Positions 2,258-19,110 of a DNA stretch of 20,000 nt are shown one piece after another. The stretch is from an uncultured virus (IMG/VR IMGVR_UViG_3300032605_001371) (lineage: Duplodnaviria; Heunggongvirae; Uroviricota; Caudoviricetes): IMG/VR virus record IMGVR_UViG_3300032605_001371. The stretch is one strand, 5' to 3'. The notes beneath the pieces were generated by a model. The model was given only the letters and a program-made list of their open reading frames with translations, was not told the DNA's origin and did no database searches. Every line of letters begins with the position of its first letter. The stretch's first letter is position 1. The position numbers and the translations under genes are program-made.

Positions 2258-2276
2258 TTAAAACGGGGATTATACT

Positions 2277-4313
2277 ATGAAAAAGATTCTTCTATCGCCT
2301 TGGCTTGCGATTATTACTTTTGCTCTATTACTTACTATTAAAATATCCAATCCATTTTTGGTAGATGCAATCAAATTAAAATACTATGATTATCTTATGC
2401 GTGGTCCAGCAAAACAGTCTGAACAGATTGTAATTGCAAATATATCAGATAAGACTATAGAGAAATATGGACAATATCCTTTTCCAAGAGAAACTTATTC
2501 TAAAATAATCAACGATTTGTATTTACATCGTGTTGGTGTAATTGGAAATACAATAATCTTTTCTGAACCAGATAGATTTAATACAGACAAAAATCTTACT
2601 GCTACTTTAAAACAGCATCCAATAATTTTATCTCAGACACTATCGACGCAATCTAAGCCAAATCAAAATATTCGTAAAACTGGTGTGGCTATAATTGGAG
2701 ATGGTAAAACTACACAGTTTTTGCCAAATTATCCTTCAGTTCTTAATAATATTTCAGAATTTCAAGATGCTGCTGTTGGTATTGGTGTAACTTCTACTTT
2801 ACCGGAATCTGATGGTGTTGTTCGCCGTGTACCTTTATTATCAATGTCTCAAGGTGAATACTATCCATCTTTTTCTATGGAAATGTTAAGAGCAATTTCC
2901 GGTGATCCATCTTATCAAGCTAAGATTAACGAGACTGGTGTGGAAGCTTTAAGAATTCCATCATTCAATACTATTAAAACAGATGAGTACTCTAGAGTAT
3001 TTGTGAACTGGAACTATAAGTTTACTCAATTTGATATTGGAGACAAAACTCCAGATTTGCTTAATAAAATTGTAATTCTTGGTGTAACTGCTTCAGGTGT
3101 GGCCAATCCAGTAGCTACTCCAGTTGGTGCACAATTTCCACAAGCAGTTCAAGCTAGTCTTCTTCAAACTCTAATTAATGGAGATACAGTTTCTATTCCA
3201 AACTGGGCTGGAATATTGGATTATGCACTTTTAGTAGTATTGGCTCTCGGAATCATTTTGTTATCTAAAGTAAGATTCTCTGTAGTTTGGATTATAGCTC
3301 TTATTGGTGTTTATCTTTACTTCCCCGTTTATATGTTTAATCATAATCATATTCTAATAGATGTAACATTTAATGCACTTATTGCAATGATACTTTATTT
3401 GCACATTTATACAATCAAGTTTATCTCAGAATTCTTACAGAAGCAACAAATCAAAAAGCAATTTGGAACTTATCTATCTCCAGCTATGGTTGAAAAATTA
3501 CAAAAGAATCCAGAACTATTACAACTTGGAGGTGATTCTAGAGAACTTTCTATTATGTTTACAGATGTTCGTGGATTTACTACTATTTCTGAACATTACG
3601 GCAAAGATGTTCAAGGTCTTACAAAGATCATGAATCGCTATATGACTGCGATGACAAAAGCAATTCTAGAGAACAACGGCACCCTCGATAAGTACATAGG
3701 TGATGCTCAGATGGCATTTTGGAATGCACCTCTTAGTAATCAACAACACGCTAAGGATGCTGTCAAGACGGCGTTTGAGATGATGAAGGCATTAGAGAGA
3801 TTTAACGATGAGATTACACTGGAAGGAGTCCCGGCTTTTGGAATGGGCCTCGGTATTAATACTGATACTGTGGTTGTTGGTAATATGGGTAGCACTCAGC
3901 GGTTTGACTATACTTGTCTTGGGGACGGCGTCAATCTTGCATCTCGCCTCGAAGGTCAATCTAAACCGTACGGGGTCAAAATCATCATCGGACCAAAAAC
4001 TGCCGAATACGTGAGAGATGAATATCAGGTAGTAGAACTTGATCTTATTGCAGTCAAAGGAAAAACTGAACCGGCTCGCATCTATACTGTCCTATCTTCA
4101 TATGATGCATCGGGAGAAAAACAACACTTGAGATTCTTGGATAGCTATCGTAAGGGTGAATGGGACTCTGCTAGAACATATGCTTCTAATATGAAGAAGT
4201 TCTGGAGCGGAGAGCTAAACAAGTACTACACGGAAATGATTGACCGTATAGAGGAATATGCTAAGAATCCACCAGTTAACTGGGATGGAGTGTATAGGGC
4301 AACTTCAAAGTAA
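2277..4313 (+). CDS. CHASE2-domain membrane adenylate cyclase (class III)
   Basis: N-terminal TM, CHASE2 motifs (YGQYPFPR, FSEPDR, DGVVRRVPL), three TM helices, then the cyclase domain FTDVRGFT, LDKYIGDAQMAFWNAP, GINTDTVVVGNMGS, DYTCLGDGVNLASRLEG. The Lys/Thr specificity pair indicates ATP as substrate (class IIIb). Confidence 0.93.
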   Translation: MKKILLSPWLAIITFALLLTIKISNPFLVDAIKLKYYDYLMRGPAKQSEQIVIANISDKTIEKYGQYPFPRETYSKIINDLYLHRVGVIGNTIIFSEPDRFNTDKNLTATLKQHPIILSQTLSTQSKPNQNIRKTGVAIIGDGKTTQFLPNYPSVLNNISEFQDAAVGIGVTSTLPESDGVVRRVPLLSMSQGEYYPSFSMEMLRAISGDPSYQAKINETGVEALRIPSFNTIKTDEYSRVFVNWNYKFTQFDIGDKTPDLLNKIVILGVTASGVANPVATPVGAQFPQAVQASLLQTLINGDTVSIPNWAGILDYALLVVLALGIILLSKVRFSVVWIIALIGVYLYFPVYMFNHNHILIDVTFNALIAMILYLHIYTIKFISEFLQKQQIKKQFGTYLSPAMVEKLQKNPELLQLGGDSRELSIMFTDVRGFTTISEHYGKDVQGLTKIMNRYMTAMTKAILENNGTLDKYIGDAQMAFWNAPLSNQQHAKDAVKTAFEMMKALERFNDEITLEGVPAFGMGLGINTDTVVVGNMGSTQRFDYTCLGDGVNLASRLEGQSKPYGVKIIIGPKTAEYVRDEYQVVELDLIAVKGKTEPARIYTVLSSYDASGEKQHLRFLDSYRKGEWDSARTYASNMKKFWSGELNKYYTEMIDRIEEYAKNPPVNWDGVYRATSK

Positions 4314-5686: not shown

Positions 5687-6700
5687 ATGCGAGCAAATGA
5701 ATTTCTTATTGAATATGACAGAACAAAGACCGCCGCTACTTTGGGTGATAAGCTCATTCATGTTGCGTACGAAGATAACACCTATAGGACCTATAGGTCC
5801 GGAATAACACCATCTGATATTTTAGAAAAGATAGAGACTAAGGATCCAACTCCAAATAAAGAATATACTCAGTGGTTGGCTCGTATGTATGCCAAAGGCG
5901 GAGTACCGTTCGAAGACCTAAACAGAATGGATGTTTTAAGTTCATATAATATAGGCAAGAAGAGAAGACAAATTCAACCAGAAGACGCTGACATCAACAA
6001 ATTTAAAACATATAAAGAATTTGAAGATACCATGATGTCAAAGTATTCACAATTGAATACTGATCCGAAGGAGGTCAACAAAGGAAAATCTACTCTTTAT
6101 TTTGAAGATGATAATGTAAGAATAATCATACCAGAAGATGAGGCAGCAGCATGTTATTATGGTAGAGGCACGCGGTGGTGTACAGCAGCCACAAAGGGTG
6201 AAAATTATTTCAATCATTATAATACAAAAGGCAAGATATATATAATTCTATTCAAGAAATTTCCGAACAAGTGGCAGTTTCATTTTGAAACTGCCCAGTT
6301 TATGGATGAGGCTGATAATGAACTCGGTATAGAACAAGTAAGATCAGTCTCGCATTATTTTTCTAAAAAGATATGGAATGATGCGTTTATCAATCGTCCA
6401 GCTGAGATGTTAAAATACATAAAAAACCCAACTGAGAAACAAAAAATAGCAGCAGTTACGGATTCGGCATTGCTAGCTCTAGAATATATAAAAAATCCAA
6501 GTAATGCAGTTAAATTAGCAGCAATAACATCCGATCCTGAGATAATTCAATACATAGAAAACCCAACTGAACAAATGCAACTAGTTGCAGTTGAGTCTGA
6601 TGGATACCTTATTCGTTATATAAAAAATCCAAGTAATGCGGTTATGATGGCCGCGGTTAAAACTAATCCGATGTCTATGAAACGCTACATATATAGATAA
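5687..6700 (+). CDS. Hypothetical phage protein with YGxGTxWC domain and ~23-aa helical repeats, truncated by a frameshift
   Basis: AACYYGRGTRWCTAA motif, then tandem YI(K/E)NP(T/S)xxxxxAAV repeats that continue in another frame past the stop. Confidence 0.7.
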   Translation: MRANEFLIEYDRTKTAATLGDKLIHVAYEDNTYRTYRSGITPSDILEKIETKDPTPNKEYTQWLARMYAKGGVPFEDLNRMDVLSSYNIGKKRRQIQPEDADINKFKTYKEFEDTMMSKYSQLNTDPKEVNKGKSTLYFEDDNVRIIIPEDEAAACYYGRGTRWCTAATKGENYFNHYNTKGKIYIILFKKFPNKWQFHFETAQFMDEADNELGIEQVRSVSHYFSKKIWNDAFINRPAEMLKYIKNPTEKQKIAAVTDSALLALEYIKNPSNAVKLAAITSDPEIIQYIENPTEQMQLVAVESDGYLIRYIKNPSNAVMMAAVKTNPMSMKRYIYR

Positions 6701-7151: not shown

Positions 7152-7409
7152 ATGTCTAGAGTATTCAACACTGACGCAAAGATTAAGTTGACCCAACTGG
7201 TTAACGAGGGCTTAGGTGTCCTACAAGAAATTGAAACTCTTAATGAAGGTCTAAACGACACCATTAAGGCAATCGCAGAAGAACTAGAAATAAAGCCAGC
7301 CATTCTTAAGAAGGCTATCAAGGTTGCACAGAAGCAGCGCCTCGCACAAACTAACGAGGAAAATGAGGAACTCAATACCATTTTGGAGACTGTTGGTCGA
7401 GCTAATTAA
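7152..7409 (+). CDS. Small dsDNA-binding protein (T4 DsbA / GapR-DUF2312-like)
   Basis: 85-aa helical protein (EIETLNEGLNDTIKAIAEELEIKPAILKKAIKVA) with strong RBS; stop overlaps the polB start (TAATG). Family call from recalled pattern only. Confidence 0.55.
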   Translation: MSRVFNTDAKIKLTQLVNEGLGVLQEIETLNEGLNDTIKAIAEELEIKPAILKKAIKVAQKQRLAQTNEENEELNTILETVGRAN

Positions 7410-9088
7410 TGGCATATGTCGATGCAGTATTAGATTCCAACGCAGATCGAATCCACGTTGTAGAACGTACTCCTGAAGGTAAACGTGCATACAAAGAGTT
7501 CCCTACGAACTACGTAATGTACTATGCTGATCCTAAAGGAAAGTATCGTTCTATTTACGGTGATCCGCTGTCTCGGTTCTCTACTCGTAAACGTAGCGAA
7601 TTCGAGAAGGAACGCAGAATACATAGTAACAAAAAACTATTTGAGAGCGACGTTAACGTAGTATTTAGGTGTTTGGCTGATAACTACCTTAATGCTGAAC
7701 CACCAAAGCTTCATACTTGCTTTTTCGACATTGAAGTGGACTTTGATCCTGAGCGAGGATTTAGTCCTACTAGTGATCCGTTCAATCCAGTAACTGCAAT
7801 CTCAATGTATCTAGATTGGCTTGATCAACTGATTACGTTGGTCATGCCACCTAAGCACATGACAGATGAAACTGCGCAAGAGTTAACTAAAGATTTTCCA
7901 AACTGCTTTCTGTTTCGTTCTGAAATAGAGATGTTTGAAACCTTCTTTGAGTTGATCGAAGATGCTGACATTCTAACTGGCTGGAACTCAGAGGGATACG
8001 ACATTCCGTATACGGTTAATCGCGTTACTAGAATCATGTCTAAAAACGATACTCGTAAGTTTTGTCTGCTGGGGAAACTCCCTAAGACTCGTACCTATGA
8101 ACGTTTCGGCAAGGAAGAAGAAACATACGATCTAGTTGGTAGAATTCATATGGACTACCTTCAACTGTATAAGAAGTACAACTACGAGTCTCGTCATAGT
8201 TATTCTCTTGATGCTATCGGTGAGATGGAAGTAGGTGAACGTAAAACTCAGTACGAAGGCAGTTTGGATCAGTTATACAATCAGGACTTTAAAACGTTCG
8301 TGGAGTATAACAGACAAGACACGATGCTTATGGTTAAAATTCACAATAAGCTAAAGTTCCTTGATCTTGCTAACGCACTAGCACACGAGAATAGCGTACT
8401 TCTTCCGACAGTTATGGGTTCGGTGCAGATGATCGAAATGGCTATCTTCAATGAAGCTCACGCACGTGGAATGATCGTACCTAACAAGAAGCCCAAAGAA
8501 GATACTGGGTTTCCGGCAGCTGGTGCGTTTGTTGCTATTCCTAAACAAGGAATGCACGAATATCCTGGTGCAGTTGACATCAACTCTCTGTATCCGTCTG
8601 ACATTCGAGCGCTGAACATGTCTCCGGAAACCATCATAGGTCAAGTTCGTCAAACACTGACTGACCAATACATGCACGAAAAGAGCATGAGATTGGCTTC
8701 TGAAAAGAAGAACAAGAAGAAGAAAAAGTTCGGAGATGACAGCGAGGAAGAAGGCGTCATTGGTGCAATTCTGTGGGAAGGATTGTTTGGCTCAATTGAG
8801 TATACAGCAATCATGAATCAAGAACGCGGAACTACCCTTTGGATAGACTATGAAGATGGTAGAAGTGTACAAATGTCTGCTGCTGAAATTTGGAAGATGA
8901 TCTTCGACAGTAACAGACCATGGATCCTTTCAGCAAATGGTACCATCTTTACTTACGAAAAAGAAGGAGTGATTCCAGGACTACTTTCTCGGTGGTATAC
9001 TGAACGTAAAAAACTTCAGAAAAAACAATACGCAGTTAGAGAAATACTCTATGGTAAATCTTTACCTGATGATTTTTTTACCGATTGA
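7409..9088 (+). CDS. polB: Family B DNA polymerase, N-terminal part (3'-5' exonuclease, palm motif A, first fingers helix)
   Basis: ExoI FFDIEVD, ExoII GWNSEGYDIPY, ExoIII YNRQD, motif A VDINSLYPS…NMSPET, GVIPGLLSRWYTERKKLQK; ends before motif B. Confidence 0.93.
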   Translation: MAYVDAVLDSNADRIHVVERTPEGKRAYKEFPTNYVMYYADPKGKYRSIYGDPLSRFSTRKRSEFEKERRIHSNKKLFESDVNVVFRCLADNYLNAEPPKLHTCFFDIEVDFDPERGFSPTSDPFNPVTAISMYLDWLDQLITLVMPPKHMTDETAQELTKDFPNCFLFRSEIEMFETFFELIEDADILTGWNSEGYDIPYTVNRVTRIMSKNDTRKFCLLGKLPKTRTYERFGKEEETYDLVGRIHMDYLQLYKKYNYESRHSYSLDAIGEMEVGERKTQYEGSLDQLYNQDFKTFVEYNRQDTMLMVKIHNKLKFLDLANALAHENSVLLPTVMGSVQMIEMAIFNEAHARGMIVPNKKPKEDTGFPAAGAFVAIPKQGMHEYPGAVDINSLYPSDIRALNMSPETIIGQVRQTLTDQYMHEKSMRLASEKKNKKKKKFGDDSEEEGVIGAILWEGLFGSIEYTAIMNQERGTTLWIDYEDGRSVQMSAAEIWKMIFDSNRPWILSANGTIFTYEKEGVIPGLLSRWYTERKKLQKKQYAVREILYGKSLPDDFFTD

Positions 9089-9948
9089 ATCCTACTTTCC
9101 ATTATGCCATTAGTATGCGAAATGATTGCATCCTTGCTGCCGAAGATAAAGGAGAAATCAAGGTTAGTGTCTGATAAGCGCAATATTGTATGTCCGCTTG
9201 CCAATGCCACGTTATTTTTTATTAAATCTCGATTTATTTGTCTTTTAGATGTGTGCCAATATTCACCATCAACTTCTACTAGTAAATTTAGATTTGGTAA
9301 TAAGAAATCAAATAACCAACTACCCTTTTCAGTATGTATAGGATGCTGATGAATGTACAATATATCATTATTCTTGCAAAATTCAATAAACGACAATTCA
9401 ATAGAAGTATGTTTTTTAGGAGTATCGTTCTTAGACATGAATTCTACTCGTTTTTTACTCCTATTGCGTCGTTGGTTATCTGATAGATCAAGCTTTTTAC
9501 CCTTATTTCCGGAGCCGCCTAACCCAATGGTATTTCCTATCATTTTAGTAGACTGTTTGGCTCTTCTCTCCGCAGTCCACGGTTTCTGTTTCCATCCATT
9601 GGCTATTCTCTCTTCCATATTAATCTTGCTGACAACCTTCATGTATTCTTTATGTTCAGGTGTGTGGGTTCCCCAAGATACTCCGGTTCGTGCGGTTGAT
9701 AATTTTTGTTTATGTTCCTCTGTTTTTCGTTTACCAGTTAATGCGTTTCTTACTTTTTCTACACTAACTGGATCATGCATTGGGTTGTTATCTCTCGCGT
9801 GTTTTCCGTATGCATGCCTTAGCTCATCAGAAAATAAAACAGATCCTGGAAATTGCGCTAAGTATTCAGCCGTAGTTATATTGTGAGTTTTTAAATGACT
9901 ACTAGTCACTCGTTTCATTTCTTTGTTACAAATAGCACAATCCACCAT
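9049..9948 (-). CDS. Putative homing endonuclease: C2H2 zinc finger + NUMOD3-like repeats + DUF559/Vsr-like (EDxHD) nuclease
   Basis: CAIC…HLKTH finger; GKRKTEEHKQKLS, HTPEHKEYMK and WTAERRAKQS repeats; FDFLLPNLNLLVEVDGEYWH…RD nuclease motif; AAGGAG RBS on the minus strand (around 9957-9962). Confidence 0.85.
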   Translation of the reverse strand: MVDCAICNKEMKRVTSSHLKTHNITTAEYLAQFPGSVLFSDELRHAYGKHARDNNPMHDPVSVEKVRNALTGKRKTEEHKQKLSTARTGVSWGTHTPEHKEYMKVVSKINMEERIANGWKQKPWTAERRAKQSTKMIGNTIGLGGSGNKGKKLDLSDNQRRNRSKKRVEFMSKNDTPKKHTSIELSFIEFCKNNDILYIHQHPIHTEKGSWLFDFLLPNLNLLVEVDGEYWHTSKRQINRDLIKNNVALASGHTILRLSDTNLDFSFIFGSKDAIISHTNGIMESRIQSVKKSSGKDLP

Positions 9949-9977
9949 ATACGACTCTCCTTTAAAAAAGCACCATA

Positions 9978-9986
9978 TGTATTTAT
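9978..9986 (-). promoter_or_regulatory. Putative late promoter (ATAAATACA) driving endonuclease 1
   Basis: + strand reads TGTATTTAT, about 30 nt upstream of the minus-strand ATG; an identical 9-mer lies upstream of endonuclease 2. Confidence 0.6.
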
Positions 9987-10002
9987 CTTATAGAGCAAAA
10001 AT

Positions 10003-11247
10003 ATGAATCTAACGAAAATTATATTGGAATACGATACTAATAAAGTGAATGATTTTATTCAAAACAAAGACAAAATTGGTCTTGTTGAATACATAACTGG
10101 TTTCGGATTAGAAATACGAGACCGCTCCATTCATCCAATGGAAGCATATAAATCAGTTTGGGGGTTAGCAATGGAGTATTGGGACAAACGACAGTTAGTA
10201 AAAAAAATTCTCTTGAACTCTACATATGGATCCATTTTGAACGAATATTGCAGGTTTTATGATAAGCGGATCGGACAGTCAGTTACTTTGTCTGGTCGTC
10301 AAATTGTTAGGCACATGATGAGCCAGATCAATGAAATCATTGCAGGTGAATACACTCACGAAGGTGAGGCGATCATCTACGGTGATACTGACTCCTGCTA
10401 CTTCACTGCATATTCTATATTAAAAGATAGAATCGAACAAGGTGAAATAGAATGGAACAAGGAAGTTTGCATCGAACTGTACGACAACATCGCAGAGCAA
10501 ACTAACGCTAGCTTTCCTGCTTTCATGGAGAAAGCGTTCCATTGTCCCCGCAAGAACGGTGAGGTCATCAAAGCTGGTAGAGAATTGATCGGTGATCGTT
10601 CTATCTTTATTACAAAGAAGCGTTACGCAATCAACATCTTCGACAAAGAAGGTAAACGCAAGGATAAGGAAGGTAAATTAGGTGAAATCAAAGCTATGGG
10701 TCTAGACCTAAAGCGTGCAGATACACCTAAGTACGTTCAGGAATTTCTTATGGAAATTCTTTGTATGGTAATTCAAGAGGGTAAGGGCCGAGACGAAGTG
10801 ATCGAAAAGATCAAAGAGTTTAAAAGAAAGCTTTCAGAACAAGACAGTTGGACTAAGGGTTCACCTAAATCAGTTAATAATTTGACAAATCATACCATTA
10901 AGTATGAGAGAACCGGTAAGTGCAGTGTTGGTCATGCTAAGGCCGCCATTCACTACAATCAACTGCGTAAGATGAATAGCGACCAGTACAGCCAAAAAAT
11001 TGTCGACGGCATGAAGGTTGTGGTGTGTACACTAAAATCAAATCCCTTAGGTATTACTTCAATCGCATATCCCACCGATGAATTACGACTTCCAAAATGG
11101 TTCCTAGAACTACCATTCGATGATCTTGATATGGAACGTAAACTAGTGGATGAAAAGATAGACAACCTGTTAGGTGTGTTAGATTGGAAAATCAGATATG
11201 ACACCAATACTAATAGTACATTTAGTTCGTTGTTTACTTTCGGCTAA
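10003..11247 (+). CDS. polB: Family B DNA polymerase, C-terminal part (second fingers helix/motif B, motif C, thumb)
   Basis: WDKRQLVKKILLNSTYG (motif B KxxxNSxYG), IYGDTDS (motif C), KKRYA, KAMGLDLKRADTP; preceded by about 55 aa not recognisable as core polymerase. Confidence 0.93.
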   Translation: MNLTKIILEYDTNKVNDFIQNKDKIGLVEYITGFGLEIRDRSIHPMEAYKSVWGLAMEYWDKRQLVKKILLNSTYGSILNEYCRFYDKRIGQSVTLSGRQIVRHMMSQINEIIAGEYTHEGEAIIYGDTDSCYFTAYSILKDRIEQGEIEWNKEVCIELYDNIAEQTNASFPAFMEKAFHCPRKNGEVIKAGRELIGDRSIFITKKRYAINIFDKEGKRKDKEGKLGEIKAMGLDLKRADTPKYVQEFLMEILCMVIQEGKGRDEVIEKIKEFKRKLSEQDSWTKGSPKSVNNLTNHTIKYERTGKCSVGHAKAAIHYNQLRKMNSDQYSQKIVDGMKVVVCTLKSNPLGITSIAYPTDELRLPKWFLELPFDDLDMERKLVDEKIDNLLGVLDWKIRYDTNTNSTFSSLFTFG

Positions 11248-11255
11248 CAGTATAG

Positions 11256-11284
11256 TTGACTTTCGTAAAGAATTCCACTATTAT
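11256..11284 (+). promoter_or_regulatory. Sigma70-like promoter, followed by a CTAAATA late-type motif at 11300-11306
   Basis: TTGACT-17 bp-TATTAT in the intergenic gap; AAAGGA RBS before ATG 11323. Confidence 0.6.
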
Positions 11285-11322
11285 AAACAAAATAAAGACC
11301 TAAATACATTAAAGGAAAACAC

Positions 11323-12054
11323 ATGAAAGATTACTTAGTTGATCTGATCCAACACACGCAAGGACTCGGTGTAGTCGAGCTTATAAAGGTTGTGGGTACA
11401 GACACAGAAACAAAAATTGCAGGATTGGCGACTGACAGATCGCTTATTCTGTTTGGTGATTTCAAGAATCCGATCCCAGAATTCAAAGGCACGTTTGGTA
11501 TGCCTAACTTGTCTAAGCTAAAGACTATTTTAGGATTCGAGGATTATGATGACACTTCAACTATAAACCTTGTACGCGAAACATACGATGGACAAGATCA
11601 TCCTGCATCAATTCACTTTGAAACTAGTAATGGTGACTTTGTTAATGACTACCGACTGATGGCTAAGTCTGTCATAGAAGCTACTGTTGCTCCAGTTAAG
11701 TTCAACGGAGCAACTTGGGATATCACGTTTGAGCCTACAAACGCCGGCATTCAACGTCTTAAGAAGCAAGCACAGGCTAACAGTGAAGAAGTAAACTTCT
11801 CAACGAAGGTCGAAAACAACGAACTCAAGTTTTTCTTTGGTGACAAGTCGTCTCACTCTGGTAACTTTGTGTTCCAAACTAACATTACCGGAAAGCTAAC
11901 AAAAGTTTGGAATTTGCCGGTAAAGGTGTTCTTGTCCGTATTAGACTTAGACGGTGACAAGACCATCAGAATGTCTGATCAGGGCGTTGCAGAGATTGTC
12001 GTTGATAGTGGTCTGGCAGTATATCGCTATATGATTCCTTGTCAGGGAAAGTAA
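11323..12054 (+). CDS. Probable DNA polymerase sliding clamp (gp45/PCNA-like)
   Basis: 243 aa, directly after polB, with a two-domain beta-alpha-beta pattern; ends …IRMSDQGVAEIVVDSGLAVYRYMIP like clamp C-termini. Inferred from size, context and pattern. Confidence 0.55.
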   Translation: MKDYLVDLIQHTQGLGVVELIKVVGTDTETKIAGLATDRSLILFGDFKNPIPEFKGTFGMPNLSKLKTILGFEDYDDTSTINLVRETYDGQDHPASIHFETSNGDFVNDYRLMAKSVIEATVAPVKFNGATWDITFEPTNAGIQRLKKQAQANSEEVNFSTKVENNELKFFFGDKSSHSGNFVFQTNITGKLTKVWNLPVKVFLSVLDLDGDKTIRMSDQGVAEIVVDSGLAVYRYMIPCQGK

Positions 12055-12423
12055 ATGATTAAGAGCATCTACGGAGGACAGGGAATTATTGTTAATGGAG
12101 GGATGCCTTCGGTACCCTACATCAACATGAGCAACCAGAGTGCTGGCATGGTAAGATTTAACGGCACCATCCAATCATTGGAAGTAGATGACGGTTCTAC
12201 TTGGTATGGTATTAATAATACTGCGAGCATGGAACTTTCTCCGGAAGTTGTATCGATCTTAGCTTGGGCAAGAAATAAACAGCAGGAAGAAAAAGACCTG
12301 CTTAATCTTTCTGAAACGAATGCTACTATCCGTGATCTGGTTGATCAAATTAAAGAAAAACAAAAACAAATTGAAGTCGTTAAGATATTGATTAAAGAAG
12401 AAGCTAAACTTGGAACAAATTAA
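12055..12423 (+). CDS. Hypothetical phage protein
   Basis: 122-aa ORF, translationally coupled on both sides; GMVRFNG…LEVDDGSTW motif and a C-terminal coiled coil. Confidence 0.65.
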   Translation: MIKSIYGGQGIIVNGGMPSVPYINMSNQSAGMVRFNGTIQSLEVDDGSTWYGINNTASMELSPEVVSILAWARNKQQEEKDLLNLSETNATIRDLVDQIKEKQKQIEVVKILIKEEAKLGTN

Positions 12424-13960
12424 CTTATCAAACGCACACCAGTCAGACTGGGCTTTGTTCCTGCCGGCAGTATCGTCATTTTTTATTGCTGGTTTAGGTA
12501 AACAACGTGAGGGTGAAAACTATTTTGATTCGGCTAGAATACCTGTTGGATTAAACGGTAATGTTGAAAAGCTAAATTTTCTGAACGAAAAAGAAGGACT
12601 GTACACTTACAAGTGGGGCCTGTATTCAGCTGGTCACGCTAATCTAGACATTACGAAGAATGATCACAATGAGAGCATCATTCGTAAGCGTGATCGTAAA
12701 AATACATTCATGTTAGGTGATTCTGGTGGATTCCAAATTCTAAAGTGTCAATGGCCCGCTGACTGGAAAGATCCTAACTGCCCGAAGGCCATGAAGAAAC
12801 GCACTGAGGTTTTGAAGTGGATGGACGAGTACATGGACTACGGTATGTGTCTCGACATTCCTTCACAGTCGCTTACTACATATCATATCAAAGACCCCAA
12901 AACGGGTAAGTCCGTGCACGGCATTCGAACCATTGAGGACGCTATTGCTGCTACTCATATTAACAATGAGTATTTCATTGCTAATCGTGATGGCCGTTGT
13001 AAGTTTCTAAACGTTCTACAAGGACGTAATCATAAACAGTCTGATGATTGGTATGAAGAAATGAAGAAGTATTGCGATCCTAATATTTACCCAGACAATC
13101 ATTTCAACGGATGGGCGTTTGGTGGTCAAACAAAGATCGACGTGCATCTGATGCTAAAGCGTATGGTTAACATCATTCATGATGGTCTGCTTGAGCCAGG
13201 CAAACATGATCTTATTCACTGTTTGGGTACTTCTATTCTAGAATACGCTATTTTGTTCACCGATATTCAAAGAGCAATACGCAAGTATCACAATCCAAAT
13301 TTGCAAATCACGTTTGATTGTGCGTCTCCATTCTACGCGGCCGCAAAGGGGCTTGCGTATAACAACAATACGTTTAGACATAACACGAAGTGGACGTATT
13401 CGATGGAAAAAACTGCTGAAAACAAAAATTATGCGACTGATACTCGCAAGTTCAAAGATGCGGTTTTGGAAGACGGCATCCATAAAGTGTTTAGTGATAG
13501 CCCTGTAACTGATATAATGATGGTTAAGGATCTCTGTTACAGAGGACCAGGCTTTCTGGGGCAACACGGCAAAGAAACGAAGACCAGCTGGGACACTCTT
13601 AGTTATACATTGATGCAAGCACATAACGTATATCGGCACATTTATGCGGTACAAGAAGCCAATCGTAAATCAGACTCGGGTATTAATCCTAAAATGGTTT
13701 TGGACAAGTTTGATGGTACCACATTCGGTGATCTTATTGATAAGATTTTTTCTCTAAAGGATCGTGAGAAAAGCCTTGCAATGATTGATCAATATAATCT
13801 ATTCTGGCAGCAGATGAAGGCCGGACAAGGGTTTTCCGGAAAAAGGGCTACAAATGCTCTTTCAAAGTTTGAGGAGTGTTTTACTATAGAAGAACCTGAT
13901 CCTGAAATCGAAGAAGTTGTTGAAGATAGCGATGACGCTATGTTAGAAGTTTTAGAATAG
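12410..13960 (+). CDS. dpdA: tRNA-guanine transglycosylase-fold protein, probable DNA 7-deazaguanine transglycosylase (DpdA-like)
   Basis: TGT motifs LGDSGGFQ, CLDIP, NVLQG, GWAFGG, IHCLG, TFDCAS; TTG start; clusters with folE/queD/queE. Confidence 0.7.
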   Translation: MEQINLSNAHQSDWALFLPAVSSFFIAGLGKQREGENYFDSARIPVGLNGNVEKLNFLNEKEGLYTYKWGLYSAGHANLDITKNDHNESIIRKRDRKNTFMLGDSGGFQILKCQWPADWKDPNCPKAMKKRTEVLKWMDEYMDYGMCLDIPSQSLTTYHIKDPKTGKSVHGIRTIEDAIAATHINNEYFIANRDGRCKFLNVLQGRNHKQSDDWYEEMKKYCDPNIYPDNHFNGWAFGGQTKIDVHLMLKRMVNIIHDGLLEPGKHDLIHCLGTSILEYAILFTDIQRAIRKYHNPNLQITFDCASPFYAAAKGLAYNNNTFRHNTKWTYSMEKTAENKNYATDTRKFKDAVLEDGIHKVFSDSPVTDIMMVKDLCYRGPGFLGQHGKETKTSWDTLSYTLMQAHNVYRHIYAVQEANRKSDSGINPKMVLDKFDGTTFGDLIDKIFSLKDREKSLAMIDQYNLFWQQMKAGQGFSGKRATNALSKFEECFTIEEPDPEIEEVVEDSDDAMLEVLE

Positions 13961-13973
13961 TTATCCAAATAGG

Positions 13974-14001
13974 TTGAAATTATATACACAAACGTTAAAA
14001 T
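13974..14001 (+). promoter_or_regulatory. Possible sigma70-like promoter
   Basis: TTGAAA-16 bp-TAAAAT upstream of GGAG RBS and ATG 14027. Confidence 0.4.
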
Positions 14002-14026
14002 AAATCTTAAGCAGTGGAGTATAAAA

Positions 14027-14221
14027 ATGAACTTGACCAGCAAAATTAATCTTCTGCAAGTCGAACTGGATTTGCTAACTGAACAAATTGCCAATGAAAC
14101 AAAAGAGCCGGTGCGAAAAATTCTGGCTATGCAACGTATACATACCTTTGAAGAACTTCGGGCAGCTAAGCGCTTGCAAGAACGTCAAATGTCTGATATT
14201 ATTGAATATAATGATTACTGA
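14027..14221 (+). CDS. Small hypothetical coiled-coil protein
   Basis: 64-aa ORF with GGAG RBS. Confidence 0.6.
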   Translation: MNLTSKINLLQVELDLLTEQIANETKEPVRKILAMQRIHTFEELRAAKRLQERQMSDIIEYNDY

Positions 14222-14228
14222 AGAAATA

Positions 14229-14675
14229 ATGAATACTAATAATTTACCCGAACAAGCTATTCAGGCTCTAGCCGATCAACGAAATAGAATCTCCGCAAGG
14301 GCAAAGCGTAAAGTGTGGGTGACCTTTCAACGCGAAGGCATTCATAGGTATCCTGCTGCTGAAGACGATCCCAACCTTAAGACTGGCGATGAATATGACG
14401 TTAGTTTTCTGGCACATCCTCACCGACATATCTTTCATTTTAAGGTGGCGATTGCGGTAGAGCATTCTAACCGAGCAATTGAATTTATACAATTCAAGCG
14501 TTGGTTGGAAAGTTTATACGGTAACGGCGTTTTGCAATTAGATTATAAATCTTGCGAAATGATAGCAGAAGATTTATATGAAGTTATTGCGTCTAAATAT
14601 CCTAACAGATATATTCAAATATCAGTGAGTGAAGACGGAGAAAATGGAGCAGAACTAACTTTTACCACAGCATAA
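14229..14675 (+). CDS. dpdL: QueD-paralogous T-fold protein, DpdL-like (putative 7-carboxy-7-deazaguanine decarboxylase)
   Basis: EGIHRYP…FLAHPHRHIFHFKV…IEFIQFK…SCEMIAE…ISVSEDGENGA. It has LxxxHRHxF in place of QueD's CxxxHGH, which I recall as the DpdL signature. Start placed at ATG 14229 rather than 14088. Confidence 0.65.
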   Translation: MNTNNLPEQAIQALADQRNRISARAKRKVWVTFQREGIHRYPAAEDDPNLKTGDEYDVSFLAHPHRHIFHFKVAIAVEHSNRAIEFIQFKRWLESLYGNGVLQLDYKSCEMIAEDLYEVIASKYPNRYIQISVSEDGENGAELTFTTA

Positions 14676-15382
14676 AGTTCTTCTTTAGTGATGGAACATT
14701 TTGTCCGTTTTGATCTATTATCGCTTTTTAATAACAGTTCTAGATTGGCAGCATGGCCTATAATTTCAGGTGGAATACTTTGTTTGAATCCCTCTGTAAT
14801 GCTAAATCGGTGATCTAGTTCGTATTCATTTCCTCTTTTTAGATTGTTCGGATTAATAATATGTTCTGCATACTTCCAGCTAGTATTAGTGAAATTAGTG
14901 ACTTGCTCTCTATATAATTCCCATTCTGTCTTGAGTTCTTTCGGTATAGAAATTCCACGTTCTATTTTTGTCAGTGTAGCTTTTTGATATGACTCAGGTG
15001 ATCTGTTTGATGCCCGCGATGATTGCATCTGTTTAGTATGAGAGGTATGTTTTTTATTGAACATCGGATTGCGTTCACCGGTATGTCCACCTCGTTGCTG
15101 CAAAGCATCAGAAATTTTCTTACCCTTTTCTTCTACCCAGTTAGGATCAGTATGCAGTTGCTGAAGTTTCTTATTCCCAACCTCACTCATCTTCTTCATG
15201 TGGACTCTCCTTTCCTCAGGAGTAATGTTTTTTTTCCTAGAAGATTCTGCCTTTGCGATGAAGCCCGGACATTGAGTAATTTTTTCTACACAACGGAAAA
15301 CCTTAGAATTTACACTTATCCATTTTGCTTGATTCCCGCAGTATACGCAAGTATAATTATGTTGCTCTTGAAGTTTAGGCAT
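14615..15382 (-). CDS. Putative HNH-type homing endonuclease with N-terminal Cys cluster and NUMOD3-like motif
   Basis: CVYC…C…C; GERNPMFNKKHTSHTKQMQS (NUMOD3-like); YELDHRFS…GHAANLELLLKSDNRSK (HNH-like DH…N…N). Confidence 0.8.
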   Translation of the reverse strand: MPKLQEQHNYTCVYCGNQAKWISVNSKVFRCVEKITQCPGFIAKAESSRKKNITPEERRVHMKKMSEVGNKKLQQLHTDPNWVEEKGKKISDALQQRGGHTGERNPMFNKKHTSHTKQMQSSRASNRSPESYQKATLTKIERGISIPKELKTEWELYREQVTNFTNTSWKYAEHIINPNNLKRGNEYELDHRFSITEGFKQSIPPEIIGHAANLELLLKSDNRSKRTKCSITKEELYAVVKVSSAPFSPSSLTDI

Positions 15383-15404
15383 AGTTCAATCTTTCTTTCA
15401 TCAT

Positions 15405-15413
15405 TGTATTTAT
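15405..15413 (-). promoter_or_regulatory. Putative late promoter (ATAAATACA) driving endonuclease 2
   Basis: + strand TGTATTTAT, 22 nt upstream of the minus-strand ATG at 15382. Confidence 0.6.
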
Positions 15414-15457
15414 GCCTAAACCTTTAAAGGAGACCAGTATGAGATAAAATTTTTAAC

Positions 15458-15553
15458 CCAAATCGTGATATTGAAATTACCGTTTCAGAAGACGGTGAAA
15501 ACGGTGCCACGATTTTCTATAATACTACTCAATCTCAACAACTCACCATCTAA
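15458..15553 (+). pseudogene. Orphaned second copy of the 3' end of the DpdL-like gene
   Basis: Translates PNRDIEITVSEDGENGATIFYNTTQSQQLTI*, versus PNRYIQISVSEDGENGAELTFTTA* at 14601-14675; no in-frame start codon (TGA at 15440). Confidence 0.85.
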
Positions 15554-15563
15554 GGAACTAAAA

Positions 15564-15797
15564 ATGGCAAAGCTCGACAATAAGTCTATCGTCAATCAAA
15601 TCTTTGAAGATTTGGAGAACTACCGTATTTTCTGTAGAGACTACGGTTATCGATATGATGAGCGAGATTTATATAACAACAAGAGCTATATCTATCGGCA
15701 GTACCAAAAGACAGTTGCAAGCAAACCTGCAAAGAATCAATGGGAAATCGATGCAGAGAAGTTTAAGGAACGTGAACTTCTTAATACCCGTCGATAA
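15564..15797 (+). CDS. Small hypothetical phage protein
   Basis: MAKLDNKSIVNQIFEDLENYRIFCRDYGYRYDERDLY…; AAGGA RBS at about 15552 supports ATG 15564 rather than 15465. Confidence 0.7.
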   Translation: MAKLDNKSIVNQIFEDLENYRIFCRDYGYRYDERDLYNNKSYIYRQYQKTVASKPAKNQWEIDAEKFKERELLNTRR

Positions 15798-15811
15798 AGT
15801 ATCGACATACA

Positions 15812-15843
15812 GTAACGGGTGGTTAACCACCCGTTACCTTTTT
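15812..15843 (+). terminator. Intrinsic terminator
   Basis: Perfect palindrome GTAACGGGTGGTTAACCACCCGTTAC (15812-15837) followed by CTTTTT. Confidence 0.8.
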
Positions 15844-15857
15844 ATTAGGACAATATT

Positions 15858-17033
15858 ATGCGTAAACTATACTATATGGGATTGGAGCCTTATAAGGCTC
15901 GGTACACTCTCCAATTGACATACTGGAATACTAGAGTCTTTGATCGTAGGGGCATCGACTACATAGTGGTGCCGGGCGAAACGCTCGATAGCAGCAAGGC
16001 TATCGTAACTGGTCAAGTGCTAGACGCACATGGTCGTTCTTATTTCGGTATGAGCCAGATGATGAATTTGGTAAAGCTGATGAAGGAAGGTAAGATCACA
16101 CAAGAAGATGTTATCTACTTTGAAGATATGTTTCAGCCGGGAATTGAGTCTCTTCCGTATATCATGGATCAGATTCCATATGACATGAGACCCAAAGTAT
16201 ATGTTCGCTGTCTAGCACAAACGATTGACCCTGATGATTTTGTTCACGTATGGGGAATGGAACGCTGGATGGGGCATTACGAGAAGATGGTTAACGAATT
16301 TGTCGACGGTGTTCTTGCAACCAATGAAGAAATGGTTGCGCACATGGCCATTGCTGGTTGGACTGCTCCCATCTATAATATTTCCGGTCTTGCTTTTGGT
16401 AAGGATGAGGTGCAAAGTCGAGTTGAACGTATCAAGCCGTTCAATGACCGTCGTATGCGAGTTGTTTTCTCTGCACGCTGGGATCAGGAGAAGCAACCTG
16501 ACTTCTATCTCGATTTGATCGATGAATGGCACAAGCAACATCCGAGCAAAAATGTAGAATTCGTTATTTGTAGCGGCAGCAAGCTGAAAAGCAACAATGA
16601 CAGCTACATGCAACGCACTCGCAAGATGATCGAAGATCGAAAATTAACGCTATATGAAGATTTGGAAAAGAATCAATACTATGAGATTGTTAACGATAGC
16701 CGAGTAGTCTTCAACTGTGCATTACAAGATTGGGTATCCAACACTGTAAGCGAGGCTGATGCATTGGGTTGCAATGTGCTGTATCCCGCATATCGTTCGT
16801 TTCCTGAAACTTTTGCTAATGATCCTGAGCGTTTGTACATTCCGTGGTCTATTCAAGATGCGATCAACAAGCTAGATCCTTTGCTGCGTCGTCCACACGC
16901 AAATATGGGCAAGATCAGTGATTGGACCGATAAAACTGTGGATCGTATTTGCGATATCCTTGAAGGAAACGGGGAGAAGTGGAATCGTGATCGTACGGAT
17001 TATAGAAAATATACAAGAGAATCAAAGTACTAA
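15858..17033 (+). CDS. GT-B fold glycosyltransferase (GT4-like)
   Basis: VVFSARWDQEKQPD and ALQDWVSNTVSEADALGCNVLYP…SFPE resemble GT4 C-terminal Rossmann motifs (R…K; D/E-x7-E); AGGA RBS. Confidence 0.75.
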   Translation: MRKLYYMGLEPYKARYTLQLTYWNTRVFDRRGIDYIVVPGETLDSSKAIVTGQVLDAHGRSYFGMSQMMNLVKLMKEGKITQEDVIYFEDMFQPGIESLPYIMDQIPYDMRPKVYVRCLAQTIDPDDFVHVWGMERWMGHYEKMVNEFVDGVLATNEEMVAHMAIAGWTAPIYNISGLAFGKDEVQSRVERIKPFNDRRMRVVFSARWDQEKQPDFYLDLIDEWHKQHPSKNVEFVICSGSKLKSNNDSYMQRTRKMIEDRKLTLYEDLEKNQYYEIVNDSRVVFNCALQDWVSNTVSEADALGCNVLYPAYRSFPETFANDPERLYIPWSIQDAINKLDPLLRRPHANMGKISDWTDKTVDRICDILEGNGEKWNRDRTDYRKYTRESKY

Positions 17034-17095
17034 ATACATGTGTCACACAACGGTGACGCACTCAAAATTGACATCCGCGTAAGGAAGGATTTACT

Positions 17096-17776
17096 ATGTC
17101 ATACAACAAAACCAAAACGGACCCCGATCTGGGTCGTAGCGTCCATGAACATCTTGTTAAAGTCGGAGTAGAAACTCCGTTTAAAGATAACGGATTAGAC
17201 CGTAAAGACAAGATTGAAATCATCGAACGAGATTTCGAACATATTATGAAAACGTTAGGACTTGATCTAACAGACGACAGCTTGGCTGAAACGCCAAAGC
17301 GGGTTGCTAAAATGTACTGCAACGAAATATTTTGGGGTTTGGATTATGATGCATTCCCGAAGTGTACGACTGTAGAGAATAAGATGAAATATAACGAAAT
17401 GGTAGTAGAACGAAACGTGAACGTTCAATCTAACTGTGAGCATCATTTTGTGGTCATCGATGGAGTTGCGACGGTCGCATATGTACCTAAGGATAAGGTT
17501 CTTGGGTTGTCTAAGATCAATCGCATTGTCGAATACTTCAGTAAGCGTCCTCAAATTCAAGAGAGACTGACTGAACAGGTATTTCATACTCTGCAATTTA
17601 TTCTAGATACTGAGGATGTTGCAGTTATGATTGATGCACAGCACTATTGCGTGAAATCGCGTGGTGTTGAGGATACCGGATCTTCAACGGTAACTGTTCG
17701 TTTAGGTGGTGGATTCAAGACTGACCCTGCTGCTAGAAATGAATTCCTAAGCATTGCAAGAATGGGAAAATGCTAA
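17096..17776 (+). CDS. folE: GTP cyclohydrolase I
   Basis: ETPKRVAKMY, SNCEHHF, GLSKINRIV, RPQIQERLT, HYCVKSRGV. Confidence 0.96.
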   Translation: MSYNKTKTDPDLGRSVHEHLVKVGVETPFKDNGLDRKDKIEIIERDFEHIMKTLGLDLTDDSLAETPKRVAKMYCNEIFWGLDYDAFPKCTTVENKMKYNEMVVERNVNVQSNCEHHFVVIDGVATVAYVPKDKVLGLSKINRIVEYFSKRPQIQERLTEQVFHTLQFILDTEDVAVMIDAQHYCVKSRGVEDTGSSTVTVRLGGGFKTDPAARNEFLSIARMGKC

Positions 17777-17982
17777 ATCTAGATTTACATGGTGTACGAC
17801 ATCAAGACGTTGATGTTATGGTGGAAAACTTCATTCTGTTAAATCAGAAGGAGTTTCCGCTTACCATACTGTGTGGTAACAGTGTAAAAATGATTAAGCT
17901 AGCAGAAGCAGTCATAGAAAGAATTGGCTGTGAAGCAAAAATGTATCGTTACGGTATCATAACCGTTGAACGATTTACGTAA
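17770..17982 (+). CDS. Small Smr-like domain protein
   Basis: LDLHGV…LTILCGNS resembles the Smr LDLHG…IxTGxG pattern; 70 aa. Confidence 0.55.
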   Translation: MLNLDLHGVRHQDVDVMVENFILLNQKEFPLTILCGNSVKMIKLAEAVIERIGCEAKMYRYGIITVERFT

Positions 17983-17988
17983 GAAAGA

Positions 17989-18498
17989 ATGAAAATGACA
18001 TTACAACCAGTATCATATGCATATACTAGTACAAAGGAATACCACGATGCGTTTCCTTGTGCTTATCGGCAATGGAGAGCAGATTCTCATTGCAATTTGA
18101 TTCACGGATATAGCTTTTCTATGAAGTTCTATTTTGGAACTAACGAGCTAGACGTTCGTAATTGGGCCGCCGATTATGGCGGTCTTAAGGAGCTAAAGAA
18201 GGTACTTGAAGACCAATTTGACCATACCACATTAGTTAGTTCTGATGACCCGGAACTTGACTGGTATAAAGAAGCAGAAAAGCGTGGTCTTATGAAGTTA
18301 ACTATACTCCCGAAATTGGGATGCGAAAGCTTAGCCGACATGCTTTATAAGTATGTCAATGGAGTTTATATTCCTGAAATGTGGGGGCCTTCCGAGGCGG
18401 CCCGGCTGTGGTGCTATCGCGTCGAAGTGCGCGAGACTCAAAGCAATATGGCATTCAGAGAAGGGCACCGTGAATGGAATGAGGACCTTTTTGCGTGA
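17989..18498 (+). CDS. queD: 6-carboxy-5,6,7,8-tetrahydropterin synthase
   Basis: SHCNLIHGYS (CxxxHG), DYGGLKELKKVLEDQFDH, GCESLA, VEVRET. Confidence 0.88.
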   Translation: MKMTLQPVSYAYTSTKEYHDAFPCAYRQWRADSHCNLIHGYSFSMKFYFGTNELDVRNWAADYGGLKELKKVLEDQFDHTTLVSSDDPELDWYKEAEKRGLMKLTILPKLGCESLADMLYKYVNGVYIPEMWGPSEAARLWCYRVEVRETQSNMAFREGHREWNEDLFA

Positions 18499-18659
18499 AT
18501 AAACTTTGGGGATTATGGGCTAAGGCTTTAGGAGAAAAGGCTTCTCCTTGTGATATAGAGTCTGATCGGATCGCTTGGATTCGAACAGTCTTAATAACCC
18601 AGTCTGTGATTACCAACATTTTTATTATCGAAAACGCAATTAGACACTGGCATGGATAA
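18495..18659 (+). CDS. Small phage protein, possibly membrane-associated (54 aa; absent from the ORF track)
   Basis: GTG start overlapping the queD stop (GTGA): MNKLWGLWAKALGEKASPCDIESDRIAWIRTVLITQSVITNIFIIENAIRHWHG*. It exactly fills the gap and overlaps the next gene. Confidence 0.7.
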   Translation: MNKLWGLWAKALGEKASPCDIESDRIAWIRTVLITQSVITNIFIIENAIRHWHG

Positions 18660-19110
18660 ATCTAACAGAATGCGAGCCGACTTGATGGTGCAGCAGCAAA
18701 TAAAAGGACCATGGCAACACATGGTCGGAGTAATCATGTTGAACCAAACATCCAGGCAGCAAGTAAAGAAAGTATTACCTGAGTTTTTAACGAGTTGGGA
18801 TACACCTGAGAAGTTGCTGTTAGCTATCGAAGACGATATCAAACGTGTAGTCTCTCCTTTAGGCATGACTAATGTTCGGGTAAAAAGATTGCTTGGAATG
18901 ACCCGAGATTATTTGAATTGGGATCATGATGATGCTACAATGCTCTATGGTATTGGTAAATACGGCAGCGACAGTTATGAAATATTTTTCAAAAATAACT
19001 ATGCGGTTCAACCAACGGACAAAGAACTAATACGATACTTGTCGAGTAATCAGCATAAGTCCGAAAATGATAACTTGAAAGAAGAAAATGACAAAAATAA
19101 AGATCAGTGA
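18652..19110 (+). CDS. HhH-GPD DNA glycosylase, MBD4-like
   Basis: PWQHMVGVIMLNQT…WDTPE…PLGM…R…LYGIGKYGSDSYEIF matches the MBD4 catalytic domain pattern (LNxT; LxGIGKYGxDSY). Confidence 0.8.
   Translation: MDKSNRMRADLMVQQQIKGPWQHMVGVIMLNQTSRQQVKKVLPEFLTSWDTPEKLLLAIEDDIKRVVSPLGMTNVRVKRLLGMTRDYLNWDHDDATMLYGIGKYGSDSYEIFFKNNYAVQPTDKELIRYLSSNQHKSENDNLKEENDKNKDQ

Follow-up and report, generated by a model that had tools for sequence, protein, structure and literature searches.

Two genes for putative homing endonucleases lie on the minus strand of a 20,000-nucleotide stretch of an uncultured tailed virus (IMG/VR record IMGVR_UViG_3300032605_001371; hereafter the window), each running into the 3' end of a plus-strand gene, and the question raised by this locus is whether both follow a single strategy of invasion. 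The first, nucA, sits between the two halves of a family B DNA polymerase (PolB) gene (cassette A), and the second, nucB, lies behind dpdL, which encodes a putative DNA-modification enzyme (cassette B). An initial annotation had described both nucleases as interrupting a conserved gene, overlapping its 3' end, sharing a promoter-like motif and leaving a plus-strand restart, and had proposed one common architecture in which antisense invaders supply a new C-terminus by dual coding. Both minus-strand open reading frames (ORFs), of 299 and 255 aa, were recovered at the positions given in Table 1, with overlaps of 40 and 61 bp as had been claimed, and both products read as free-standing homing-type endonucleases with a late-type promoter motif of their own and no splicing. 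The common architecture did not survive comparison with related loci. Cassette A is a gene in pieces with a restart; in cassette B the gene is intact, with its 3' half exchanged and a relict of the former end left stranded. We therefore consider it probable that these are two separate free-standing homing elements, each with a putative late T4-type promoter and neither spliced: an arm-nuclease-arm module in the polymerase, and a replacement of the dpdL 3' end.

The arrangement is not an assembly artefact, because positions 7239-17500 were assembled identically in four sequencing runs and both nucleases are found at 100% identity in four IMG/VR contigs. In three of the four runs (which may be the window's own source) this region is covered without any base difference by single 18.6-kb Logan contigs, and in the fourth by two abutting contigs. 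No joint across the empty site of either cassette was found in the contigs of these four DNA runs, which drop rare variants and can prove presence, not absence. All 20 runs holding the stretch are DNA, and 19 of them are labelled lake or freshwater. The window is part of a 69.8-kb contig of a large T4-like phage with a family B polymerase, a clamp-like gene and a 7-deazaguanine cluster (folE, queD, queE).

In cassette A the polymerase is divided, and its catalytic set is complete over two separate ORFs, with Exo I and motif A in PolB-N and motifs B and C in PolB-C; both halves match the two-piece PHROG families 2062 and 1918. The ATG at 10003, one of the two proposed restarts, is genuine and opens PolB-C. 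The break falls at the fingers tip, where the loop of intact relatives is about ten residues long, and each half bears an extra arm there: a C-terminal tail on PolB-N and an N-terminal head on PolB-C. A profile of the head matched PolB-C of Atu_ph07 (3e-10) and, weakly, the contiguous fingers insert of the single-chain GAP32 polymerase (5e-4), and reached only 0.09 with Phosso; the tail profile had no significant outside match, and searches for further arm-bearing polymerases gave nothing new, a weak negative. The head is under purifying selection, with a ratio of nonsynonymous to synonymous substitution (dN/dS) of 0.24-0.32. Because homologous arms occur in sense, antisense and nuclease-free (Atu_ph07) alleles, and the PolB-N arm is conserved with or without nuclease overlap, the tail is, by sequence comparison, an old conserved module and not the dual-coding product that had been proposed. 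The window's arms are nearly neutral (charges 0 and -1), and those of most relatives are basic/acidic. A complex prediction for the two arm-plus-helix pieces scored 0.48 versus 0.02 for the best control, with run-to-run contact agreement of at least 86% and partner pLDDT of at least 71. Of 157 solved complexes 116 reached the mark, as did 2 of 215 mismatches; 18 of the solved complexes and both mismatches did so at 0.60 or below. This lends weak support to a predicted pairing of the arm-plus-helix pieces.

The nuclease in the gap belongs to the EDxHD (Vsr-like) type and matches I-Bth0305I (E 7e-4). Residues D214, H232 and D241 of nucA align with D196/H213/D222 of I-Bth0305I, named as catalytic positions in PMC3239194, and the catalytic E, D, H and D are invariant in nine orthologues. 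A NUMOD3 match was absent from nucA and weak in the orthologue at locus L199 (E 0.027). Two pairs of relatives were unsaturated, and their dN/dS values of 0.22 and 0.075 indicate purifying selection. A survey of 169 loci around nucA-like matches, 46 of them with polB, yielded 14 distinct nuclease loci, in which nucA is sense at eight (L005, L137, L140, L141, L142, L144, L146 and L270) and antisense at six (window, L135, L269, L139, L143 and L199). Antisense orientation as a general strategy, as initially put forward, does not fit these counts, nor two GIY-YIG-like genes in sense orientation on the phage's own contig, one with a weak Pfam match and one judged by eye. Atu_ph07 has the same PolB split with an 18-bp gap and no nuclease.

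Empty polymerase sites, which the initial annotation had presupposed, are common: among 80 loci chosen by dpdL (L001-L080), 63 have a single-ORF polymerase and one (L005) a split one. On a 65-row tree of the PolB-N body (11 short or duplicate rows dropped) the split label requires seven changes, five of them forced by starred branches, and monophyly of split alleles was rejected (p-AU 8e-69, with 11 split of 30 rows). The split L141 is sister to the intact L080 (99), and the window's PolB-N is closest to the intact L070/L026/L006. Since split alleles do not form one clade, the nucA module appears, on these trees, to move between polymerases. On the nucA tree (11 rows; three loci missed by the search pattern) a single change of orientation suffices (89/89).

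Motif B offers a possible clue to the cut site. The window's variant occurs in none of 62 relatives, and motif B is broken at one and the same point in six nucA carriers versus none of 61 intact relatives; five of the six have an Rfam-confirmed ORF-less group I intron there, the sixth, L005, being unscanned. These introns lie at L141:3563-3782, L142:3707-3931, L144:3500-3720, L146:3685-3930 and L202:2660-2872(-), and the L005 break is near 2508. They were seen only in EDxHD-nuclease loci, making three-piece polB genes and possibly a case of collaborative homing. Separate inserts occupy the motif C region (L002:1146-2577; L070 and L071:1836-3267; L137:4229-5662; L141:4003-4661); their sequences are intein-like, those of L002/L070/L071 are in frame and that of L137 is split around a gap. 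At L199:1739-4475 an antisense nucA orthologue stands beside PolB-C with PolB-N not within 3.5 kb, and the halves may have moved apart.

Cassette B is built differently. Interruption of a conserved gene holds for nucA but not for nucB, since dpdL is complete at 148 aa, uninterrupted by the HNH gene, and aligns end to end with intact relatives; it carries LxxxHRHxF, the DpdL motif (PMC10516641), and matches ACP17 at 52% and phiST at 36%. The second proposed restart, at 15439, was likewise rejected: this ATG stands 6 rather than 7 nt after AAGGAG, encodes only Met-Arg before a stop and lies in another frame than the stranded dpdL end. The junction piece that contains it is probably the clipped start of the donor's next gene, a weak assignment resting on a 13-nt match (E 1.0) to the next-gene start in L069/L253. 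Beyond it lies a relict that, to judge from the alignments, is the original dpdL 3' end, because intact relatives resemble the relict more than the functional end. The relict is identical to nine intact relatives at 73-80 of 96 nt (76-83%), versus 40 of 75 to the nucB carrier L002, and the functional dpdL end matches these nine at only 41-48 of 70-75 nt; in protein, the relict reaches 84% to intact relatives and 55% to the functional end. GC content at third codon positions is 0.30 in dpdL and 0.29 in nucB, versus 0.39-0.45 in the flanks, and the 3' half of dpdL looks foreign. Cassette B thus has a foreign in-frame 3' end, a nuclease behind it and the native end stranded, the layout of WHO- and mORF-type elements, and unlike genes in pieces its host gene is not divided into two expressed parts. 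At 76 of the 80 dpdL loci neither nucB nor a T5orf172 nuclease stands at the gene end, and these are empty sites.

The product of nucB appears to be of the HNH type, with D190-H191, N213 and N222 invariant in six orthologues; it has no Pfam HNH match, and HNH matches in a fold search were weak (best E 0.69). The NUMOD3 match reaches 22.5 bits, above the 20.4 cut-off, and 33.8 bits in L087, so that a DNA-binding module is present. Nine of ten pairs gave dN/dS of 0.08-0.16, indicating purifying selection, and the tenth was saturated. From 42 loci, 23 distinct genes remained once identical window copies and partial matches were left out, L375 being a 24th, and at all 24 nucB is antisense behind dpdL. 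Nineteen of the 23 overlap dpdL by 8-61 bp, three have extra DNA between and one is truncated. Relicts occur at six of the 24 loci (window, L243 in part, L253, L254, L258 and L375); at L375 a dpdL of a distant clade, with nucB, is joined to a relict of the local clade. L040/L263 have the same layout with an unrelated T5orf172/DUF723 nuclease, antisense, with a 64-bp overlap and a relict. The relict breakpoint lies at the K-Y-P codons in five relicts; a breakpoint shared by all fails at L375, which is longer, and L243, which is shorter.

A candidate nucB target block emerged from codon comparison, and the codon at 14475 is a lead within it. In the main clade this codon is Asp in 70 of 72 distinct non-carriers and in none of 15 carriers, Asp being kept at the T5orf172 locus, and it lies upstream of every relict start.

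Decay stages were also seen around dpdL: a 3' nucB remnant behind the gene (L427:2294-2476(-)), a truncated nucB (L242) and a carrier-type dpdL without nuclease (L059). One gene further, before the glycosyltransferase, a second hotspot holds nucleases in either orientation (L028:6471-7304(+), L370:3122-4042(-), L413:2665-3687(-)), with DUF723-like repeats and an HNH-like end, distinct from nucB.

Table 1. Features of the two endonuclease cassettes and the gene that follows them (window coordinates).
Position	Strand	Feature	Basis
7409..9088	+	PolB-N, N-terminal half, 559 aa; exonuclease domain and motif A; ends at fingers tip	Pfam PF03104/PF00136; phrog_262, phrog_2062; motif positions
9020..9088	+	Extra C-terminal arm of PolB-N, 22 aa; absent in single-chain short-finger relatives, conserved in sense and antisense carriers	Alignments
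9049..9948	-	nucA, 299-aa homing-type endonuclease of the EDxHD (Vsr-like) family; E184/D214/H232/D241 intact; overlaps the PolB-N arm by its last 40 bp	3R3P match, E 7e-4; alignment
9949..9986	-	nucA leader: TAAATA late-type motif (9978-9986), Shine-Dalgarno-like sequence, weak hairpin over start	z -2.65 for 9940-9990
10003..11247	+	PolB-C, C-terminal half, 414 aa; motifs B and C	Pfam, PHROG, motif positions
10003..10167	+	Extra arm of ~55 aa at the PolB-C N-terminus; homologues in the other split alleles and in Atu_ph07 PolB-C	Alignment; profile matches; dN/dS
14229..14675	+	dpdL (QueD paralogue, proposed CDG decarboxylase), complete, 148 aa; at least the 3' half looks like a foreign, nuclease-associated allele	LxxxHRHxF motif at 14409; ACP17, phiST matches
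14463..14486	+	Candidate nucB target block	Codon comparison, inferred
14615..15382	-	nucB, 255-aa HNH-type (D190-H191, N213, N222) endonuclease with NUMOD3 motif; overlaps the dpdL end by its last 61 bp	Profile, alignment, dN/dS
15371..15423	-	nucB leader: TAAATA motif (15405-15413) within a 13-bp inverted repeat covering the start codon, arms 15371-15383 and 15411-15423	z -2.76
15424..15457	+	Junction piece: AAGGAG, ATG 15439 reading Met-Arg-stop	13-nt match to next-gene start in L069/L253, E 1.0
15458..15553	+	Relict, read as original dpdL 3' end: 31 codons and stop, without own start; stop overlaps the next gene's Shine-Dalgarno	DNA identity to intact relatives
15564..15797	+	Conserved 77-aa gene	Immediately 3' of dpdL in most intact relatives

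The motif common to both leaders proved to be a property of the phage. As initially reported, ATAAATACA precedes both nuclease genes, 29 nt before the ATG of nucA and 22 nt before that of nucB; these are its only two copies in the window, both on the minus strand, a count within chance (0.49 expected; at least two in 22 of 200 shuffles). In the 69.8-kb contig, 13 of 19 copies of ATAAATA lie at most 70 nt upstream of an ATG-started ORF of at least 60 aa, where at most 7% are expected, and of 20 other permutations only two reached at least 40%, both overlapping the same motif. TAAATA was thus rejected as a nuclease-specific motif; it is a genome-wide signal before ORFs and, as far as its distribution tells, the phage's general late-type motif. 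T4-type late promoters have a TATAAATA-like -10 element, which we take the window's motif to resemble. A TAAATA stands 21-24 nt before the nucB start at 22 of the 23 distinct loci. The 13-bp hairpin over the nucB start fits the pattern of T4 late control, though it is weak in most relatives, being not conserved there and strong only in the window; both nucleases would be transcribed late. Scans for sigma-70 promoters and terminators gave chance-level matches only. The GIY-YIG-like genes lie at G000:C1:16436-17122 and about 20228-20921, the second with an upstream TAAATA motif and inverted repeat.

Removal of the interruptions by RNA or protein splicing, through an unrecognised intron or a split intein, is highly improbable, even though group I introns and in-frame intein-like inserts do occur elsewhere in related polymerases. 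Rfam applied to 8500-16000 gave three chance-level matches only and no group I intron core, whereas group I introns scoring 74-92 bits were recognised with this library in 5 of 12 related loci; the PolB gap has 54 non-coding bases and no intein end motif, and group I/II introns and inteins were rejected on these grounds. In addition, each nuclease lies on the wrong strand to share the host transcript, the gap of the Atu_ph07 split is a mere 18 bp, and dpdL, being complete, needs no splicing.

For cassette A, the preferred reading is that an arm-stop-nuclease-start-arm module replaces the short fingers-tip loop of PolB, so that the polymerase would be made as two chains that assemble non-covalently, aided by the two arms, into an active enzyme. 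The arms may be halves of a small insertion domain that, by its look, is contiguous in some jumbo-phage polymerases. The module would home into single-chain alleles, and the nuclease gene would have been inverted once inside it, the inverted form borrowing a stop codon on the strand opposite the arm. The nucA cut probably falls at motif B, where many carriers have the ORF-less intron and the window has substitutions; we infer that motif B is the nucA target and that the intron hitch-hikes, as was proposed for phage 25 (PMC2993671). For cassette B, nucB would cut sensitive dpdL alleles inside the gene, perhaps at the candidate block, and repair would copy in the donor's resistant dpdL 3' half together with the nuclease. 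Where the right junction is one-sided, or falls in an older relict and not in the next gene, the recipient's old 3' end would be left stranded; one-sided illegitimate repair has been described for T4 (PMC2988022) and relict-assisted homing for WHO elements (PMC7282813).

Several results weigh against this account. On the polymerase side, no co-conversion gradient was found at the DNA level beside the PolB split, monophyly of the window and L135 was not rejected (p 0.15), and the patchy distribution of splits may owe something to a split ancestor whose descendants repeatedly lost module and nuclease. Weak homology links the arms to contiguous inserts (5e-4 for GAP32, by the head only; 0.09 for Phosso; not significant for the tail), and the complex prediction includes fingers helices that pair in solved polymerases, so that it may pass by likeness. 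On the dpdL side, the nucB fold search gave no match under E 0.001. Codon 14475 is Glu in all 54 members of the second clade (7 carriers, 47 non-carriers), and its signal is confounded by kinship, as carriers cluster on a poorly resolved dpdL tree (five changes, one forced by starred branches). The first target candidate, an SCEMxxD motif altered in 22 of 22 carriers, failed a control in which second-clade non-carriers (80 loci) showed the same non-Asp state, and was further weakened by its presence in the L375 relict.

Loss of mobility would accommodate some of these points. According to such an explanation, the polymerase began in the split long-finger form and on repeated occasions re-fused or shed its nuclease, and the relict behind dpdL arose by an ordinary local duplication. 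Split or long-finger forms at the base of the sampled tree, the failure to see an empty allele of this phage in the four runs (whose contigs drop rare variants) and the decayed copies L242 (truncated) and L427 (remnant) are in its favor, but it is unlikely: both nucleases have kept their active sites and evolve under purifying selection, the relict is closer to intact relatives than to the functional end, the reverse of what a recent local duplication would leave, and the nesting of split among short-finger alleles would demand repeated exact loss of both arms. Even less likely is the single strategy initially proposed, with antisense late nucleases that would provide a restart and, through dual coding, a new C-terminus, and whose antisense transcripts would damp the host genes late. 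Cassette B has no restart, eight of the 14 nucA loci are sense and one split lacks a nuclease altogether, and the PolB arm is conserved whether or not a nuclease overlaps it. The antisense setting of both genes, with convergent overlaps and the same 9-mer, does speak for it, as do the 24 antisense nucB loci and the unrelated antisense T5orf172 nuclease at the same site; the latter, however, amount to two independent origins only. The overlaps, which range from 8 to 64 bp or are absent, are as expected if a nuclease gene runs to the first stop on the opposite strand, and are most simply explained by such read-through. A new antisense regulatory strategy is not supported, and two separate homing elements remain the preferred reading.

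Known systems resemble each cassette in part. Like cassette A, nrdA-a/mobE/nrdA-b of Aeh1 has a free-standing endonuclease between the halves of an essential gene and no splicing, and extra terminal tails were proposed there as a general neutraliser of fragmentation (PMC3045599). Unlike that case, the window involves PolB and an EDxHD nuclease that may have either orientation, the arm module occurs in many lineages, also nuclease-free, and its arms are nearly neutral here though basic/acidic in most relatives. The split gp43 (43A/43B) of Aeromonas phages 25 and 44RR is also a two-gene family B polymerase, its gap with or without a nuclease; in phage 25, which has seg43(25), the two halves purify together and show activity, and 43B, the downstream half, contains an ORF-less group I intron (PMC2988022, PMC2993671, PMC2677866), as the downstream half does in several nucA carriers. 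Cassette A differs in phage lineage, nuclease family and its antisense form. Fractured genes with Vsr-like (EDxHD) endonucleases (PMC2677866; I-Bth0305I, PMC3239194) share the nuclease family of nucA and show a putative T4 late promoter and hairpin upstream, overlaps of 6-69 bp and a model of invader-supplied stop and start (PMC2677866); they have three ORFs on one strand and mostly hosts with split inteins, whereas the window has no intein and a 3'-to-3' overlap.

Cassette B recalls the WHO elements at FBA1 of Torulaspora and Lachancea (PMC7282813), in which the nuclease lies downstream of its target, behind a resistant replacement 3' end, with stranded 3' fragments starting slightly downstream of the cut and several nucleases per locus. 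Membership of nucB in that family was rejected, WHO being an intein-derived LAGLIDADG plus zinc-finger protein that targets FBA1 and nucB an HNH-type protein at a phage dpdL; by analogy, nucB would work like WHO without being one. Cassette B further differs in residing in a phage, in pairing HNH and T5orf172 nucleases with the locus, in its antisense convergent overlap and in the absence of a relict from 18 of 24 carriers. In the mORF hybrids of fungal mitochondria (Glomus, Allomyces atp6; PMC3630166) a foreign in-frame C-terminus is likewise followed by an endonuclease and the stranded native C-terminus is closer to intact relatives, but the mORF is co-transcribed with its host gene, whereas nucB lies on the strand opposite dpdL and has a promoter motif to itself. 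Intronless homing by the T4 seg and mob genes (PMC2988022) offers free-standing genes that cut away from their insertion site, middle or late promoters and a hairpin over the ribosome site; segD is the sole antisense gene there and, unlike the window nucleases, has no promoter of its own. No closer system is described in the available portions of PMC6892783 and PMC10448857. No full-length nucA or nucB orthologue was found in cultured phages, and none of three cultured-phage neighbours checked has an antisense cassette at a gene end.

The surroundings of the cassettes hold further features. Positions 12410-19969 comprise the 7-deazaguanine cluster, with a DpdA-like 516-aa gene (named by context only), dpdL, a glycosyltransferase, folE, queD and queE, and queC was not seen in the window; with such a cluster the nucleases would need to cut modified DNA. 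A bacterial-type signalling block occupies 343-4313, with genes for a secreted repeat protein, a FecR-like protein and a CHASE2-adenylate-cyclase-like protein (named by reading of the sequence only). Paralogous genes with a similar M-R-x-x-E-F start motif stand in a row at G000:C1:22055-31205 and at window positions 5687-6700. A small DsbA-like gene at 7157-7268 has a second allele, with 11 differences and ~40-60% of depth in all four runs; the cassettes have no variants.

Neutralisation of an insertion without splicing, by an invader-supplied stop and start, a late promoter and an overlap, is already known from PMC2677866, PMC3045599, PMC7282813 and PMC3630166. New here are the antisense, promoter-bearing form, an arm module that appears mobile over many polymerases and a WHO-like dpdL hotspot for two nuclease families; no phage account of antisense, end-replacing free-standing nucleases was found in a literature search that left most subscription papers outside. 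A wider proposal can be offered tentatively. The dpdL locus may be a homing hotspot of a phage WHO-like family, in which unrelated nucleases (HNH and T5orf172), seated antisense, have repeatedly rewritten one half of a DNA-modification enzyme, with the stranded end as a landing arm and the seat itself selected (operon translation untouched, late counter-transcription added). The polymerase module may be a portable split-and-rejoin domain that turns single-chain into two-chain PolBs in lineages sharing only 50-85% likeness, an ORF-less intron travelling along at the cut site.

The two cassettes thus provide two testable cases of splicing-free homing in phages, though the mosaic ancestry of polB and dpdL calls for caution with the trees of both genes. 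For dpdL, a candidate target block and presumably sensitive and resistant alleles can be named, and one cleavage assay could test WHO-type replacement of a 3' end in a phage. For PolB there is a natural series, from single-chain short-finger and single-chain long-finger forms to split forms without a nuclease and with one in either orientation, with or without the intron, and this series bears on whether the nuclease caused the split or invaded a polymerase already split.

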